A DNA stretch of 64,000 bases from an uncultured Methanosarcinaceae archaeon (GCA_963727895.1 CAVSHT010000012.1:352001-416000); one strand, 5' to 3'; positions 18,839 through 34,150 are shown, numbered from the stretch's first letter. A program made the numbers and translations. Notes: a model not told the origin generated them from the sequence alone.

Positions 18839-18945
18839 CAAGCCTTTAAAAATTGCTTGATCACAAGCCTTTAAAAATTGCTTGATCACAAGCCTTTAAA
18901 AATTGCTTGATCACAAGCCTTTTCAAAAAAGGCTTGAGCGAAAAC
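18839..18945. repeat. 25-bp tandem palindromic repeat CAAGCCTTTAAAAATTGCTTGATCA x3 plus a canonical CAAGCCTTTTCAAAAAAGGCTTG hairpin
   Basis: Units start at 18839, 18864 and 18889; a fourth variant starts at 18914; a related AAACTTTTTCAAAAAAAGTTTG hairpin lies at ~18979-19000. Confidence 0.9.
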
Positions 18946-27848: not shown

Positions 27849-27957
27849 GACGTTCCCCCAATACATTATATTTTATTTATATTATATAATCATGGCACTA
27901 TTATTTTTGGAATACCGTTTAAAGGAATTTTTGCTCAAGCTTTTTTTTAAAAATATT

Positions 27958-28696
27958 GGCTTTGATACTTAAACATAGTTATGTACTATTAGAAAGTATA
28001 TTTCTTCATTAACTGCCCAAAATGTAATAGTTCCAGTCACAAAAAGAACGGTATAGTTGGCGGGCGTCAACGCTACAAATGCCATGATTGTGGCTATAAC
28101 TATACAGTAGAGCTAAAATCAACTGCTTTTTCCGCTTCTGTAAAAAGACAGGCTTTACAACTCTATCTTGAAGGATTGGGCTTTCGTTCAATAGGAAGAG
28201 TTTTAGGGGTGAGTCATGTTTCTGTCCAAAAATGGATAAAGAAATTTGGTCAGGAGTTAGAGGACCTAAAAAGTGAAAATGAGATATCTATTGTTGAAAT
28301 GGATAAAATGCACACTTACATCGGTAACAAAAAAAATATTGCTGGATCTGGATTGCTATTGATAGAGTTGGGAAAAAGTTCATCAACTGCTCTTTTGGTA
28401 GCAGAGGAACGGAAACTGGAAAACTACTCTGGGAAAAATTGAAGAAAAAGAGATCGGAGAAGTGATGACAGATCACTGGAGGGCATATGCAGAGTTTCTT
28501 CCAGAAAAGATCCATACTCAATCAAAAGCAGAAACGTATACTGTTGAAGGATATAACAGCATATTGAGGCACTTTCTGGCAAGGTTGAGAAGAAAGACAA
28601 AGTGTTATAAAAAAAGTCTTGAAATGCTAAAGTACTAGGTTATTCTATTGATGAAATAAAGAAAGAAAGAACTAGATATAGTTAAGTAACAATACC
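27958..28696 (+). mobile_element. IS1-family element, copy 2 (degenerate; no TSD)
   Basis: Ends GGCTTTGATAC...CAATACC; ATT in place of ATG, DEM changed to DKM, late TAG. Flanks AAAATATT and GTATTATG do not match. Confidence 0.92.
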
Positions 28697-28704
28697 GTAT
28701 TATG

Positions 28705-29445
28705 GGCATTGTTAACTAAATATATCTAGTTCTTTATTTCTTTATTTCATCAATAGAATAACCGAGTACTTTAGCATTTCAAGACTTTTTTTATAACACT
28801 TTGTCTTTCTTCTCAACCTTGCTAGAAAATGCCTCAATATGCTGTTATATCCTTCAACTGTAACTGTTTCTGCTTTGGATTGAGTATGGATCTTTTCTGG
28901 AAGAAACTCTGCATATGCCCTCCAGTGATCTGTCATCACTTCTCCGATCTCTTTTTTCTTCACTTTTTCCCAGAGTAGTTTTCCAGTTTCTGTTCCTCTG
29001 CTACCAAAAGAGCAGTTGATGAACTTTTTCCCAACTCTATCAACAGCAATCCAGATCCAGACATATTTTTTTTTGTTACCAATGTAAGTGTGCATCTCAT
29101 CCATTTCAACAATAGATATCTCATTTTCGCTTTTTAGAGCCTCCAACTCCTTACCAAATTTCTTGATCCATTTTTGGACAGAAACATGACTCACCCCTAA
29201 AAACCGCCCTATTGAGCGAAAGCCCAATCCTTCAAGATAGAGTTGTAAAGCCTGTTTTTTGACATAAGTGGAAAAAGCAGTTGATTTTAACTCTACTGTA
29301 TAGTTATATCCACAATCATAGCATTTGTAGCGTTGACGACCACCAACTATACCATTCTTTTTGTGACTGGAACTATTGCATCTGGGGCAGTTCATGAAGA
29401 AATAGAGGTTCTCATAATAAATAACTATAGTTAATTATCAAAGCC
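28705..29445 (-). mobile_element. IS1-family element, copy 3
   Basis: 8-bp TSD GTATTATG at 28697-28704 and 29446-29453; terminal GGCATTG / GGCTTTG. Confidence 0.93.
28742..29395 (-). CDS. IS1-family transposase, single uninterrupted ORF
   Basis: 217 aa with Zn-finger/HTH and DDE regions in one frame (A9 plus TATGTC at the site that is out of frame in the other copies). Confidence 0.9.
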   Translation of the reverse strand: MNCPRCNSSSHKKNGIVGGRQRYKCYDCGYNYTVELKSTAFSTYVKKQALQLYLEGLGFRSIGRFLGVSHVSVQKWIKKFGKELEALKSENEISIVEMDEMHTYIGNKKKYVWIWIAVDRVGKKFINCSFGSRGTETGKLLWEKVKKKEIGEVMTDHWRAYAEFLPEKIHTQSKAETVTVEGYNSILRHFLARLRRKTKCYKKSLEMLKYSVILLMK

Positions 29446-29795
29446 GTATTATGATGTGGTTTTGATTGATATGCCTTATGAAATATATTTTTGAATTTTA
29501 TTTCCATTGTATTAATTGCTGCCAGCAGTTCGATTTGCACTCTCTGCTCATCTGTCAGGTCGTGCTTTTGCTTATCTAATTTTCGAGCAATATCACTAAG
29601 AAATTCTTCATACGATTTTTCTACTTGTTTAGGAGCTTTTACTGGCTTTGCAGACTTTACAGACTTAGCTACCGGCTTGAAAGGTTGCTTGACAGGTTTT
29701 AGAATTTTTACTCTGCAACTATTGAAGTAGTAGTCGTTCGAGTTTTTTCTATAATGAAAATGCCAGCTGCCACATTCTGGGCAAACTTTGACCAT
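29446..29795 (-). pseudogene. Zn-ribbon-containing element protein, truncated by IS1
   Basis: MVKVCPECGSWHFHYRK...YFNSC; the reading frame runs into IS copy 3 and the remainder is missing. Confidence 0.55.
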
Positions 29796-29800
29796 CAATA

Positions 29801-30237
29801 TCACAACCTAAACTTACTTTCGATAAATTTAGGCTCAAAAGCTCTTACTTGTCCTCTAGCACGCTTGCATACAGCCTGAATATCCATTAAAGTGATTTTT
29901 TCAGGCTTTTTTGCTATTTTAGGGGATATTTTATGCTCTTTTACTTGCTCTTTTGCTGGGTACGGCTCGTCAGGGAAGAAATATTCTATAGGGCTTCTCG
30001 TATCACTTGTATGGCGCTGCAGCCCTTAATACAAGCATATGTTTTAATTTGCTGCTCCAACAAAGGAGAAATTTTATGTCCACTCAATCTTTTTTGCTGT
30101 TCCAACTCTGGCAAGAAATGTGCCCATAGAATGGCGTTCACAATTTGCGTTCTTATGACGTTGTGCTGTTCGCAATATTGATTTGGTTCGTTCGAGAGCC
30201 GCAGCTGCTTTAAAAGTGCAAAATTATAAATGGACAT
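29801..30237 (-). pseudogene. Tandem RHH-like DNA-binding protein, frameshifted at ~29989
   Basis: QYCEQHNVIRTQIVNAILW and TYACIKGCSAIQVIREAL; the adjacent frame continues IEYFFPDEPYP...KFRL to TGA at 29801. Confidence 0.5.
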
Positions 30238-30241
30238 ACTA

Positions 30242-30577
30242 TCACTCGCCCCTCAGATATGCTGAACTTCCGCCGTCAAGCGAATTTTCAACATCATTTG
30301 TTGATGCTATTTCGTTTTTTGATATGAGCAGATATTTGCAAAGAATTGCGCGTTCGATAAAAATCATGTTGTAAATCCCGCCATCGATATGACTACGATA
30401 ATATTCGACCCCAGCGGCAATTTTTGTTCGCAGTGTGTCAATGTCAGGTAGTGGCTCACTCGGGTAGAGTGCGAACCACAGCACCTCGGTTGCCCGACTT
30501 CGTGAGATTTGATGCTCTTTTGCATATTGATCAACCGCGGCAGTTAGCTGTGGAGGTACATAATCGAGATTATACAT
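30242..30577 (-). CDS. Putative ribbon-helix-helix DNA-binding protein
   Basis: VPPQLTAAVDQYAKEHQISRSRATEVLW resembles CopG/RHH; GGAGGTG RBS before ATG 30577. Confidence 0.6.
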   Translation of the reverse strand: MYNLDYVPPQLTAAVDQYAKEHQISRSRATEVLWFALYPSEPLPDIDTLRTKIAAGVEYYRSHIDGGIYNMIFIERAILCKYLLISKNEIASTNDVENSLDGGSSAYLRGE

Positions 30578-31474
30578 TTGTATCACCTCCAAACATCTCT
30601 AAAATTAGGTCGTTGAGCCATCCGCTACGACTGTCAATGCCTCGCTCTCTATCAATAATTGCTATGACCGCAGGGTCAAATGAAAGCGAAGTATTAATTT
30701 TTTGGCATTGTTACTTAACTATATCTAGTTCTTTATTTCTGTATTTCATCAATAGAATAACCGAGTACTTTAGCATTTCAAGACTTTTTGTATAACACTT
30801 TGTCTTTCTTCTCAACCTTGCCAAAAAGTGCTTCAATATGCTGTTATATCCTTCAACAGTATACGTTTCTGCTTTTGATTGAGTATGGATCTTTTCTGGA
30901 AGAAACTCTGCATATGCCCTCCAGTGATCTGTCATCACTTCTCCAATGTCTTTTTTCTTCACTTTTTCCCAGAGTAGTTTTCCAGTTTCTGTTCCTCTGC
31001 TGCCAAAAGAGCAGTTGATAAACTTTTTCCCAACTCTATCAACAGCAATCCAGATCCAGCAATATTTTTTTTGTTACCGATGTAAGTGTGCATTTCATCC
31101 ATTTCAACAATAGATATCTCATTTTCACTTTTTAGGTCCTCTAACTCCTGACCAAATTTCTTTATCCATCTTTGGACAGAAACATGACTCACCCCTAAAA
31201 CTCTTCCTATTGAACGAAAGCCCAATCTTTCAAGGTAAAGTTGTAAAGCCTGTCTTTTAACAGAGGCGGAAAAAGCAGTTGATTTTAGCTCTACTGTATA
31301 GTTATATCCACAATCAGAGCATTTGTAGCGTTGACGCCCGCCAACTATACCATTATTTTTGTGATTAGAACTATTGCATCTGGGGCAGTTTGAAGAAATA
31401 TACTTTCTAATAGTACATAACTATGTTTAAGTATCAAAGCCAATATTTTTATTTGGATTGATAGCTCTAACCAT
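30570..31474 (-). pseudogene. CopG/RHH-like small repressor gene interrupted by IS1 copy 4
   Basis: Removing the IS and one TSD restores MVRAINPNKNINTSLSFDPAVIAIIDRERGIDSRSGWLNDLILEMFGGDTNV*. Confidence 0.65.
30704..31441 (-). mobile_element. IS1-family element, copy 4 (start codon lost)
   Basis: ORFs 30959-31225 and 30711-30962; near-TSD AATTTTTT (30696-30703) / AATATTTT (31442-31449). Confidence 0.92.
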
Positions 31475-31562
31475 TATATATCCCTCTGTATAATTTTCAA
31501 AAATTTTGGCAGTGTGTTGTAGCTATCACACTTTGGGCAGGCTTTGACTGTTTTAAGCTCGG

Positions 31563-32584
31563 TCATATTGATTCACCAACATATTTTGATTCAAAAAAGC
31601 GATTATAGTGGAGTGGTAGTTCTGGAGGTCTTGATGATTCTGACTTTATACAAAAGGTACGAGTTCTAAAACCACCGTTCCCTCCTCTACCATAATCGTG
31701 GAAATATATGCCTTTATCAATACCATCTTCTATGAGAACGATTTTGTCAAGATGTTGAAAATAAACCAATTCACATGCTATGTCATGTATTATATCAAAT
31801 TTAGTCGATGTTGGTTCTGATTCATCTCTGATATTATCGATCTCATTCTGTATATTGGACTCTCGATGATAGCAACTTTCACAAGGTGCTTTATATATCT
31901 GAACAAGGCGTTCAAATATATCATCGTCATAAAAAGTTCGATGTGTCCAGTCTGTTACTTCATATCGTTCATACGGATCACTATTAGTATTCTCAACATT
32001 CAGGTGTTGCTGAGTGATTTCTTTCTCTTTGATGTCGATAGTATAGCATCGTGGATCGACAATGCCTATGTACATCGGTTGTTTAAATTTACAGAACCAG
32101 ACGAGTTGATGAACTGCCAAGCCACTATTTGGTGTTTTAAGTTCAACAAAATAATAGTCAGTAAATACATCTGGCTTCTCACGATACACAATAAGAAAGT
32201 CCGGGGCACCACGGATTAGCAAATCCTCGAATATGAAGCCTGTTTTGTTTGTGAACCAAGTGTTGAACTTGTCTCGATCCCACTTACTAAAATCTTGTTT
32301 TAGCTGTTCAAATTGCTTCTTTGGGGTCTCACGATATGCTGTAGTACAATCATATCTGCCGATGGGATTGATTCGAATAACATCAAATCCCAAGCATGAA
32401 TAAAAATGCGTAAAAAAAGCTTCTGTTGTGCTAAATGATAGTGAGAGCTGTACATTTTTAATATGATATATCTTTTTATATATTCTCCAATATATTCCTC
32501 TGAGAATACATCATCGTGATATTTGTTGGTCTGTCTCATGTTTTGCATATCACAAATCGTGATAAGCGGCTGTTCATCGGTCAT
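31563..32584 (-). pseudogene. VRR-NUC / PD-(D/E)XK nuclease-domain protein, probably frameshifted near 32400-32510
   Basis: GAPDFLIV...YFVELKTPNSGLAVHQLVW motif; the frame extends upstream (TEAFFTHFYSCLGFDV) and overlaps ORF 32300-32584, which supplies the coupled ATG. Confidence 0.65.
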
Positions 32585-32718
32585 ACTGCCTCACCTGCTG
32601 CTTCTAAGATGACCTGAGCTGCTGCTTTTTCTATAGGACTTCTAAACTTTATGAAATAATTAATACTGTCGCGATATTTCGTAACTAGACTAGATGCTTT
32701 CTCTTGCGTTAAGACCAA
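32581..32718 (-). CDS. Small hypothetical protein (45 aa) of the integrated element
   Basis: TTG start after GAGG; VLTQEKASSLVTKYRDSINYFIKFRSPIEKAAAQVILEAAGEAV; ATGA overlap with the next gene. Confidence 0.45.
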   Translation of the reverse strand: MVLTQEKASSLVTKYRDSINYFIKFRSPIEKAAAQVILEAAGEAV

Positions 32719-32838
32719 GATAATGCCTCGAAAGTGATTTAAAAAAGAATGCTTTCATCGAGGTAATCTCGCCGAAGTAATCTTTATACAATAATAATTA
32801 TTGTATTTCTTTCTTTATGTACTTAATTACCGTTATCG

Positions 32839-34029
32839 TTATTGTTTTTGAATAAGCGATGCAAATTTTGCTGCGAATTTAGGGTCGTTGAGTATTTCAG
32901 CCATAAACTCTTGCATTGCAGTATCATTTGACTGCTGCACTTCTTTTGTGAGGGGTGCCCCACAATTCAAGCAAAATGTTGCAGTAGCCGGGATCATTTT
33001 CCAGCATTTTGGGCACTTGCCAATTTCAAGTCCTTTGTCGCTTTGCTTCTTCTCAATAATGCCATACCGATCACAAAATACAGCATTCTCAACGTCTTTT
33101 CCGCTTAGACTAATATATAATGACGGCATTGGACTGCTCGGTTCCCAGCCAAGATAAGTTCGCATCATTGATTCACCCCAAACTTTGCTCAACTGAGTCG
33201 CTGTTGTATGCCTAAATAAGTGCGGATGAACACGCTTCTCAATACCCGCGGCTTTAGCCACTTCACGAACAATATAGTGAACGCTATTATATTTTAGTCC
33301 GTGTCGAACATTTTGTCCCTCTGCAAGCCAGAGAGGAGCATCGCGATTAGCGCTGCTCTGGTGCTGTCGCAGGTAATAATCAATATAAGGGGCTGCGGAT
33401 ACAATCGGAACTTCACGAGGGCCTGTCTTGCCCTTTGGAAATGTGAGCTTACCGCCTTGTTGTGTCAGTTCAAAATCTCGAACTCTGCACGATATAAGTT
33501 CACCTGCTCAGCAACCTGTTTCAGCCAAGACAGCAATTATCGCTTTATCCTTGACCTTATCGGCTGCTGCAATCATTTTTTCAATCTCAACCACCGTCAG
33601 AAGTTCATTTGCCTGAACACGTTTTGTAGCGGGATCAACATCTATTTGCTCTGACAAATTTTTGTATTTTGGCTGATCATATCTTTTTGCATACCAGTTG
33701 AGAAATTTTTTGACGCCAATTGTATACACTTTTTTGCTCGCGTCAGATGCAGGCTTGCCATCTTCACGTTTCCAATTTTTAATCGCGGCCTGGATCACCT
33801 CAATATTGTCTAGTATCAGCTTGTCTAGATCTGTTTTTACATTTCGCAGTATAAATCGGACAATAGCGACATTATTTGCAATTGTCGCTTCCGACTTGAT
33901 TTTTGAACTTGCCTGCATATATGCAACATATTTGTGCATTATTTCACAATTGACTTTAGATATTTTTTCATATTCTCCCTCATTCATAAAAAATGTTTCT
34001 ATTGTTAATTTATCGCCCACTATCTTCAA
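32839..34029 (-). pseudogene. Tyrosine recombinase/integrase with a C-terminal Zn ribbon; TGA at the catalytic Arg codon (33508-33510)
   Basis: Single frame: LAETGC*AGEL...KGKTGPR...HPHLFRHT...YLGW..SS.MP..Y...CPKC...CLNCG. Confidence 0.88.
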
Positions 34030-34150
34030 TAAATCACCAAAAATTAGTATATATCGCGATAGATATAAATATATTAAATAATTGAGGTATTATTTTTAAA
34101 AAGCTTGAAACAAAGCCTTTTAAAGGTTAACTTCTGTCAATCTGCATGAC

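Follow-up and report, generated by a model that had tools for sequence, protein, structure and literature searches.

The attachment sites that archaeal integrases use in the chromosome (attB) lie mostly in tRNA genes, and AT-rich intergenic sites are also known, such as that of PsiM100 (available portion of PMC8371274). Here, we describe an integrated element of about 6.1 kb in DNA from an uncultured Methanosarcinaceae archaeon, contained in a stretch of 64,000 nucleotides that was analyzed as a whole and is called the window below (GCA_963727895.1, CAVSHT010000012.1:352001-416000; positions count from its first letter). The element, bounded at 27936-34107, is decayed, carries an integrase pseudogene at its right end, and sits in the centre of a palindromic intergenic repeat. 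It resembles PsiM100 of Methanothermobacter wolfeii and other classical elements, as far as the same source portrays them, in having a whole integrase gene next to one attachment (att) site, an AT-rich intergenic attB instead of a tRNA gene, and short direct repeats as its bounds. Unlike them, it is dead, its integrase has a C-terminal zinc ribbon, and its attB core falls at the centre of one member of a family of dispersed palindromic repeats.

Integrases of the SSV type, in the accessible parts of PMC7253208 and PMC8371274, are likewise archaeal tyrosine recombinases of integrated elements, but they carry the att site within the integrase gene, and integration splits that gene. A suicidal integrase of this type was considered for the window and rejected: the gene is a single open reading frame (ORF), and the core lies outside it, with the att site 64 nt upstream. 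PAISt, an island of the bacterium Streptomyces turgidiscabies, also has a palindromic, site-specific core, the 8-bp TTCATGAA; in the available text (PMC4057263), however, this palindrome is placed at the 3′ end of a gene and in no repeat family.

Within the terms that they covered, our literature searches returned no archaeal tyrosine integrase that targets a repeat family. Elements that land in repeats include phiRv1 in REP13E12, the filamentous prophages of Neisseria in dRS3, and IS1397 and IS110/IS621-type elements in REP sequences. These resemble the window element in having a multi-copy intergenic repeat as a harmless target, but they use serine recombinases, Piv/IS110-type or DDE enzymes at many copies, whereas here a tyrosine recombinase is found at a single copy. 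Tn916-type elements likewise combine a tyrosine recombinase with a target in which T and A tracts abound; Tn916, however, uses many sites and leaves non-identical coupling sequences, whereas the flanks here are identical over 10 bp and the relatives are site specific.

We consider it likely that the element was inserted by its own integrase in a single site-specific event, in which strands were exchanged inside T5A5, on the palindrome's axis, and that it decayed thereafter. A circular element (plasmid or virus remnant) encoding a classical, non-self-splitting archaeal integrase with a C-terminal zinc ribbon would have recombined once with the chromosome, at a short core inside TTTTTAAAAA at the top of the stem of an intergenic palindrome. 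One core copy would have been left at each end, with the integrase gene close to the right junction. Later, a TGA replaced the codon for the catalytic arginine of the integrase, three IS1-family elements inserted, and part of the left end was probably lost; the element is now fixed in place. The sequences directly document the insertion and its exact boundaries, the 10-bp repeat, the dead integrase, the IS copies, and an arm motif common to relatives, whereas the role of this integrase in the insertion, the point of strand exchange within the 10 bp, and the sparing of the host promoters are deduced.

The insertion splits an intergenic palindrome

At the left junction, CAAGC is followed by eight T and five A residues and then by TATT; at the right junction, GGTATTA precedes T5A5 and GCTTG (Table 1). 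A preliminary description of the locus had read these same letters as the halves of a split CAAGC...GCTTG palindrome. The 10-bp direct repeat T5A5 is identical at both ends, and the integrase gene, with its start codon at 34029, adjoins the right-hand copy and reads inward.

We searched the right flank in 31 related genomes and aligned both flanks to the loci returned from 11 relatives, among which one congener alone is close enough for comparison at base level. In this congener (G001, locus L002, same genus; flanks 81-88% identical), the alignment of the left flank ends at 27953 and that of the right flank starts at 34090, with an overlap of 13 bases. Its joined flanks read CAAGCTTTTTTTTAAAAAGCTTG, an unbroken palindrome, and the joined locus, GAATTTTTGCTCAAGCTTTTTTTTAAAAAGCTTGAAACAAAGCC, is exactly the rebuilt palindrome that the preliminary description had predicted. 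The empty site consists of the left flank, one core, and the right flank. When folded, it forms an 11-bp stem with a TTT loop at −11.4 kcal/mol (z −3.0; matched by 0 of 200 shuffles), and T5A5 forms the top of this stem.

The same joint is present in metagenome contigs from two public runs (one contig in X2 and two in X4), which pass from 27943 to 34093 and skip 6149 bases, with 10 letters compatible with either side. The contigs are about 95% like the window, with only 24 letters on the shorter side, and therefore represent related populations and not excision in this strain. None of the sequencing runs holds more than 0.20 of the sampled words; in the four runs that were mapped, depth over the element falls almost wholly on the insertion sequence (IS) copies, and the uncovered parts are uninformative. 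Together, the congener and the contigs bear out the central proposal of the preliminary description, an att site that is not a tRNA gene and lies in the centre of a palindromic intergenic repeat.

At six of the 11 loci (G001, G002, G003, G005, G011, and G016), a homologue of the left flanking gene adjoins the right-hand gene without the 6-kb insert; the remaining five have another left neighbour. At least one hairpin unit of this type stands just upstream of the right-hand gene at nine of the 11 loci, in some cases in tandem arrays. These loci also bear on the reverse course of events, in which the 6.1 kb are ancestral and the relatives lost them by precise deletion between the T5A5 copies. 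Direct repeats can mediate deletion, and the base-level comparison draws on one congener, but the insert is missing from the six loci and the three metagenome contigs, it is made up of DNA from mobile elements (an integrase, IS copies, and orphan ORFs), and intact hairpin units persist at nine of the 11 loci. A single gain is a simpler account than several precise losses that are all identical, and we regard an ancestral insert as extremely unlikely.

The target belongs to a dispersed hairpin repeat

Hairpins of the form CAAGC-N6-20-GCTTG occur four times in the window against 0.81 expected (at least four in 0 of 100 shuffles), all of them at 18839-18936. The copy at 18914-18936, CAAGCCTTTTCAAAAAAGGCTTG, is of the same type as the split palindrome, a likeness already pointed out in the preliminary description. 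Across the genome, the strict form CAAGC-Tn-An-GCTTG has one further copy (C7:71154), which is unoccupied. A regular expression for the broader pattern, with the consensus TTTTCGCTCAAGCCTTTTTTGAAAAGGCTTG, matches 18 copies in the genome and none in the reversed control. Contrary to its first characterization, the repeat is dispersed without being abundant.

The region 18839-18936 is built of three tandem 25-bp units, each CAAGCCTTTAAAAATTGCTTG, followed by CAAGCCTTTTCAAAAAAGGCTTG. In relatives, arrays of two to five or more similar units lie upstream of the PAPS-reductase-like gene, each unit paired with the TATA-like sequence CCTTTTAAAGG.

An integrase pseudogene with a C-terminal zinc ribbon

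The predicted product of the integrase gene fits the tyrosine recombinase/phage integrase family (PF00589). It matches PHROG 1 (integrase) with an E-value of 3.5e-21, and its C-terminal piece matches Pfam Zn_Ribbon_1; PF00589 scores 24.1 bits on this C-terminal piece alone, under the cut-off of 27.1. Identity as XerA was examined and rejected, because the NCBIfam model XerA_Arch (NF040815, an equivalog) gives 93.6 bits (E 1.5e-26) against a cut-off of 220, the genomes hold several divergent paralogues each, and the gene sits in an insert.

The reading frame is interrupted by a TGA in the context ETGC*AGEL. All ten homologues in an alignment with the window protein (A1) carry arginine in this column, and H270, R273, H274, W295, Y305, and four cysteines are invariant. 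The catalytic set R..K..H-x-x-R..H/W..Y is therefore incomplete, its box-I arginine being replaced by the TGA; for this reason the gene is dead, and the encoded integrase would be inactive unless the TGA is read through.

Relatives of the integrase use other sites

In a large protein collection, the integrase has 102 relatives at E<=1e-20, several of them with a zinc ribbon; the best is 65% identical (metagenomic P0002). Relatives at 30-33% identity belong to archaeal pleomorphic viruses and a Methanomicrobiales tailed virus, and haloarchaeal plasmids also encode relatives. Of 59 genomes from the genus, 36 contain a match with E<=1e-40.

The nearest intact homologues, in G057 (55% identity; PF00589 at 74.5 bits) and G017 (43%), lie at the same unique AT-rich site, GTATATAATA, as do remnants in G009 and G015. 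This integration hot spot lies just upstream of a PIN-ATPase-KH gene that is conserved in 58 of the 59 genomes; it is occupied in four genomes and empty in most, and occupied copies continue from GTATATAATA with TAAY, and empty copies with AAACCTCTG. It maps to 2405-2415 of L049 (G057) and 7108-7118 of L045 (G017), and is also found in L058 (G009) and L059 (G015). Judged by these junctions, the relatives are site specific for another target, which is unique and is not a hairpin.

The integrase-proximal arm of the window element (P arm) shares a motif with the junction arms in all four genomes (alignment A2): the core is followed by TAAY...T.AATTA...AA.A and then by TTTGGTGA before the start codon. 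At the G009 locus, the arm is kept without an integrase. Because the shared motif comes right after the junctions, the right junction in the window is homologous to those of the relatives, and this arm is the best evidence for reading it as a genuine att junction of the family.

More distant relatives have other surroundings. A group at 33-36% identity has another conserved upstream context, which by eye resembles a pyrF-like 3′ end, although no tool named the gene. Two paralogues in the window's own genome, 37% identical to the integrase, have in common an upstream region into which the end of a gene extends. A closer paralogue on contig C4, 60-79% identical and frameshifted, abuts a truncated gene that we read by eye as a metalloprotease-like fragment. 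The string ATTATTTTTAAAA (L046 8751-8790, G000:C4), with the same 13 bases as the right junction in the window, lies about 340 nt upstream of this paralogue, in the opposite orientation and with a truncated gene fragment between string and paralogue; it could be a displaced att remnant or a chance match.

The preliminary description had also suggested a family of transposons that use hairpin repeats as landing sites and had proposed that the ends of homologous elements be inspected for CAAGC-T(n)-A(n)-GCTTG. Inspection of 30 homologue loci (L014-L043) found no hairpin half adjoining the integrase; two of the loci contain such a string inside the integrase coding region. A search for the arm and core pattern of the window across the 59 genomes gave 11 matches with three mismatches, a level similar to that of the reversed control, and the 58 congeners hold no second copy of the arm above that level. 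Scanning genome contigs with the integrase gave no relative, and scanning metagenomes gave one locus, L043 (53% identity), which has neither a hairpin nor a convincing repeat pair; its two copies of TTTTAAAA, at 2234 and 8934, may be due to chance. The genome-contig, metagenome, and congener scans contained no second copy or circular form of the element. Comparison of bounding direct repeats yielded nothing usable for G057 and G017, both of whose contigs end before the far junction, or for the elements on contigs C5 and C4 (at 229 kb) of the window's own genome. G066 has four integrase copies of 41-44% identity, on contigs too short for junctions.

These results make it unlikely that the integrase lineage is a multi-target transposon for which any dispersed CAAGC-Tn-An-GCTTG hairpin is a landing site. 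Such a transposon would be expected at different copies of the target, and a single instance was found; the nearest intact relatives share one unique non-hairpin site, the only other strict hairpin is free, and the idea already fails for the relatives examined, the C4 paralogue among them. It draws support from the membership of the target in a dispersed family with tandem arrays at the locus in relatives, and from the crossover on the axis of symmetry, a position that could let a pair of integrase monomers occupy the two stem arms if the canonical layout in the accessible part of PMC8371274 applies.

IS1-family insertions and the left end

Three copies of an IS1-family element (A, B, and C) have inserted in the window element. 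The IS is 741 bp long with the ends GGCATTGTTA...TCAAAGCC, as defined from 81 full-length genomic copies, and its IS1-type DDE transposase with an N-terminal zinc finger, terminal inverted repeats, and target duplications of 8-9 bp place it in this family. Copy B encodes an intact transposase (Pfam DDE_Tnp_IS1, 74.3 bits; NCBIfam transpos_IS1, 238.8 bits against a cut-off of 100) and is flanked by the perfect 8-bp duplication GTATTATG at 28697-28704 and 29446-29453. Copy C is a simple insertion whose duplication matches at seven of eight bases (AATTTTTT at 30696-30703 and AATATTTT at 31442-31449); a sister element on contig C5 has no IS at this point and reads AATTTTTT followed by TATTGGG.

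Genome-wide, the IS gives 314 BLAST hits (202 of at least 650 nt), amounting to 4.8% of the 3.67-Mb assembly. A perfect duplication, at AT-rich targets, is kept by 32 of the 81 full-length copies (8 bp) and by one more (9 bp); so few kept duplications point to much IS-mediated rearrangement in this genome.

Copy A lacks a target duplication and begins 4 bp from the left core, and the original left arm of the element has therefore been cut off or lost. On the opposite strand, the 10 bases that border copy A, TAAAAATATT, read exactly like a flank of copy C and share the T>A change that sets this flank apart from the other duplication copy of C; identical 10-base flanks are found in just 7 of 9045 pairs of IS copies in the genome. 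The identity extends, inverted, over 27948-28008 and 31391-31451 (100% across 51 nt of IS end and 10 nt of flank), and elsewhere the two copies agree at about 95%. Gene conversion between IS ends that extended into nearly identical flanks, or a rearrangement that copied one end, is the likeliest explanation. Two inversion models, one by homologous recombination between copies A and C and one by replicative inversion within the molecule, were also considered and rejected, as neither predicts the observed arrangement of the flanks. Because of the shared flank, TATT, the only bases between the left core and the end of copy A, cannot be assigned to the original left arm, and the near-palindromic circle junction rebuilt in the preliminary description is accordingly putative; with gene conversion and with rearrangement alike, T8A5 was already present at the left junction, and the 10-bp repeat therefore stands.

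An origin of the insert in which the integrase had no part, with the 10-bp repeat as a transposase target duplication or as microhomology from illegitimate recombination and an IS1 rearrangement shaping the left end, has to be judged against these observations. It would agree with the position of copy A against the left core and with the frequent IS-mediated rearrangement implied by the roughly half of the genome's IS copies that lack a target duplication, and the flank common to A and C remains unexplained. The right end, however, has neither an IS terminus nor a terminal inverted repeat, the IS duplicates 8 bp and not 10, and the junction arm is homologous to the arms of integrase elements at other att sites. 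End joining usually shows 0-4 bases of identity, far fewer than the 10 identical bases found here. We consider such an origin very unlikely and favour integration by the element's own integrase.

Cargo and flanking genes

None of the cargo ORFs matches a Pfam, PHROG, or NCBIfam family. The final 14 codons of the 130-aa ORF lie within the duplication and IS copy B, and the gene is therefore truncated; this truncation and the missing duplication of copy A suggest that a left part of the element has probably been lost. For the 276-aa ORF, which contains a D...ELK-like motif, an atlas search gave leads to VRR-NUC/Hjc-type nucleases at 0.84-0.85, under the level of 0.9 that counts. The segment 30592-30695 is 97% identical to the sister element on contig C5.

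Further integrase elements lie at G000:C5:367989-371140 and G000:C4:229250-230820, with integrases 37-39% identical. They are 85% identical to each other over 1.6 kb and 97% identical to the window element over 104 nt. On the basis of such patches, element families appear to exchange modules.

The target lies between two divergently transcribed genes. The left one matches no family in Pfam, PHROG, or NCBIfam, and its earlier label as DUF3566-like finds no confirmation in Pfam; the right one matches NCBIfam NF010368 with 1186.5 bits. A TATA-like sequence (CCTTTTAAAGG, 34117-34127) remains with the right flanking gene. TATA-like sequences appear to stay with each of the two genes, sparing both host promoters, and the insertion was therefore probably neutral for the host.

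Table 1. Features of the integrated element and its flanks (window coordinates)
Feature	Position	Strand	Description
Left flanking gene, 101 aa	27561..27866	-	From the ORF list; transcribed away from the insertion
attL	27936..27953	.	Left hairpin half (CAAGC 27936-27940, T8 27941-27948) plus A5 27949-27953; T5A5 copy 27944-27953; TATT follows at 27954-27957; equals the left part of the L002 empty site
IS1-family copy A, degraded	27958..28696	+	Fragmented transposase ORFs; flanks AAAATATT / GTATTATG, no target duplication
IS1-family copy B	28705..29445	-	Intact 217-aa transposase, 28742-29395
Cargo ORF, 130 aa	29412..29804	-	N-terminal CxxC...C zinc-ribbon-like motif
Two small cargo ORFs	29986..30592	-	83 aa, 29986-30237; 116 aa, 30242-30592
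IS1-family copy C, degraded	30704..31441	-	Simple insertion
Cargo ORF, 276 aa	31563..32393	-	Weak lead to VRR-NUC/Hjc-type nucleases
Tyrosine recombinase pseudogene	32839..34029	-	Single frame, 396 codons; C-terminal 4-Cys zinc ribbon; 64 nt inside the right junction
In-frame TGA	33508..33510	-	At the catalytic box-I arginine
Integrase-proximal arm (P arm)	34030..34092	-	Opens with TAATACCTCAATTATTTAAT on the core side and closes with TTTGGTGA just ahead of the start codon; includes GGTATTA 34086-34092
attR	34093..34107	.	Second T5A5 copy 34093-34102 plus right hairpin half GCTTG 34103-34107
Right flanking gene, 634 aa	34151..36055	+	PUA, PAPS-reductase, and 4Fe-4S ferredoxin domains (Pfam)

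Discussion

Several points weigh against integration by the element's own integrase at the palindrome axis. Gene conversion or a rearrangement may have reshaped the left junction. T5A5 by itself is not rare: TTTTTAAAAA occurs three times in the window against 1.21 expected, and at least three copies were reached in 13 of 100 shuffles, in line with an earlier caution that an AT-rich match of 10 bp can arise by chance; it is the placement of both copies, not their frequency, that carries the weight. There is one instance only, from which a specificity for T5A5 or for the hairpin would have to be deduced, and no hairpin half lies near the C4 paralogue. In favour of an integrase origin, the right end carries no IS terminus and the repeat exceeds the 8 bp that the IS duplicates. 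On balance, site-specific integration into the centre of a palindromic repeat has been seen once, and the insert is an integrated element of the ordinary kind that landed in an unusual place.

The arms of the palindrome could serve as the two core-binding sites, by analogy with the canonical layout given in the accessible part of PMC8371274. For a narrow sub-lineage comprising the window copy, the C4 paralogue, and P0002, a wider proposal can be made, namely that the hairpin arms are the core-binding sites, that exchange takes place on the axis, and that every copy centred on T and A tracts is a potential attB in either orientation. We think this improbable; if true, recognition of the hairpin arms would make this the first archaeal tyrosine integrase known to target a dispersed repeat.

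For a family of archaeal integrases with a zinc ribbon at the C-terminus, this locus resolves an attB to the single base; it does not establish a new class of mobile element. It is a further example of integration away from tRNA genes, in this instance on the dyad axis of an intergenic repeat that forms a stem and separates two divergent promoters. That tyrosine integrases favour dyad-symmetric targets is a long-standing idea, and a site at the axis of a palindrome fits it. The locus also shows how quickly such an element can be immobilized in a genome in which a single IS1-family element makes up 4.8% of the DNA.

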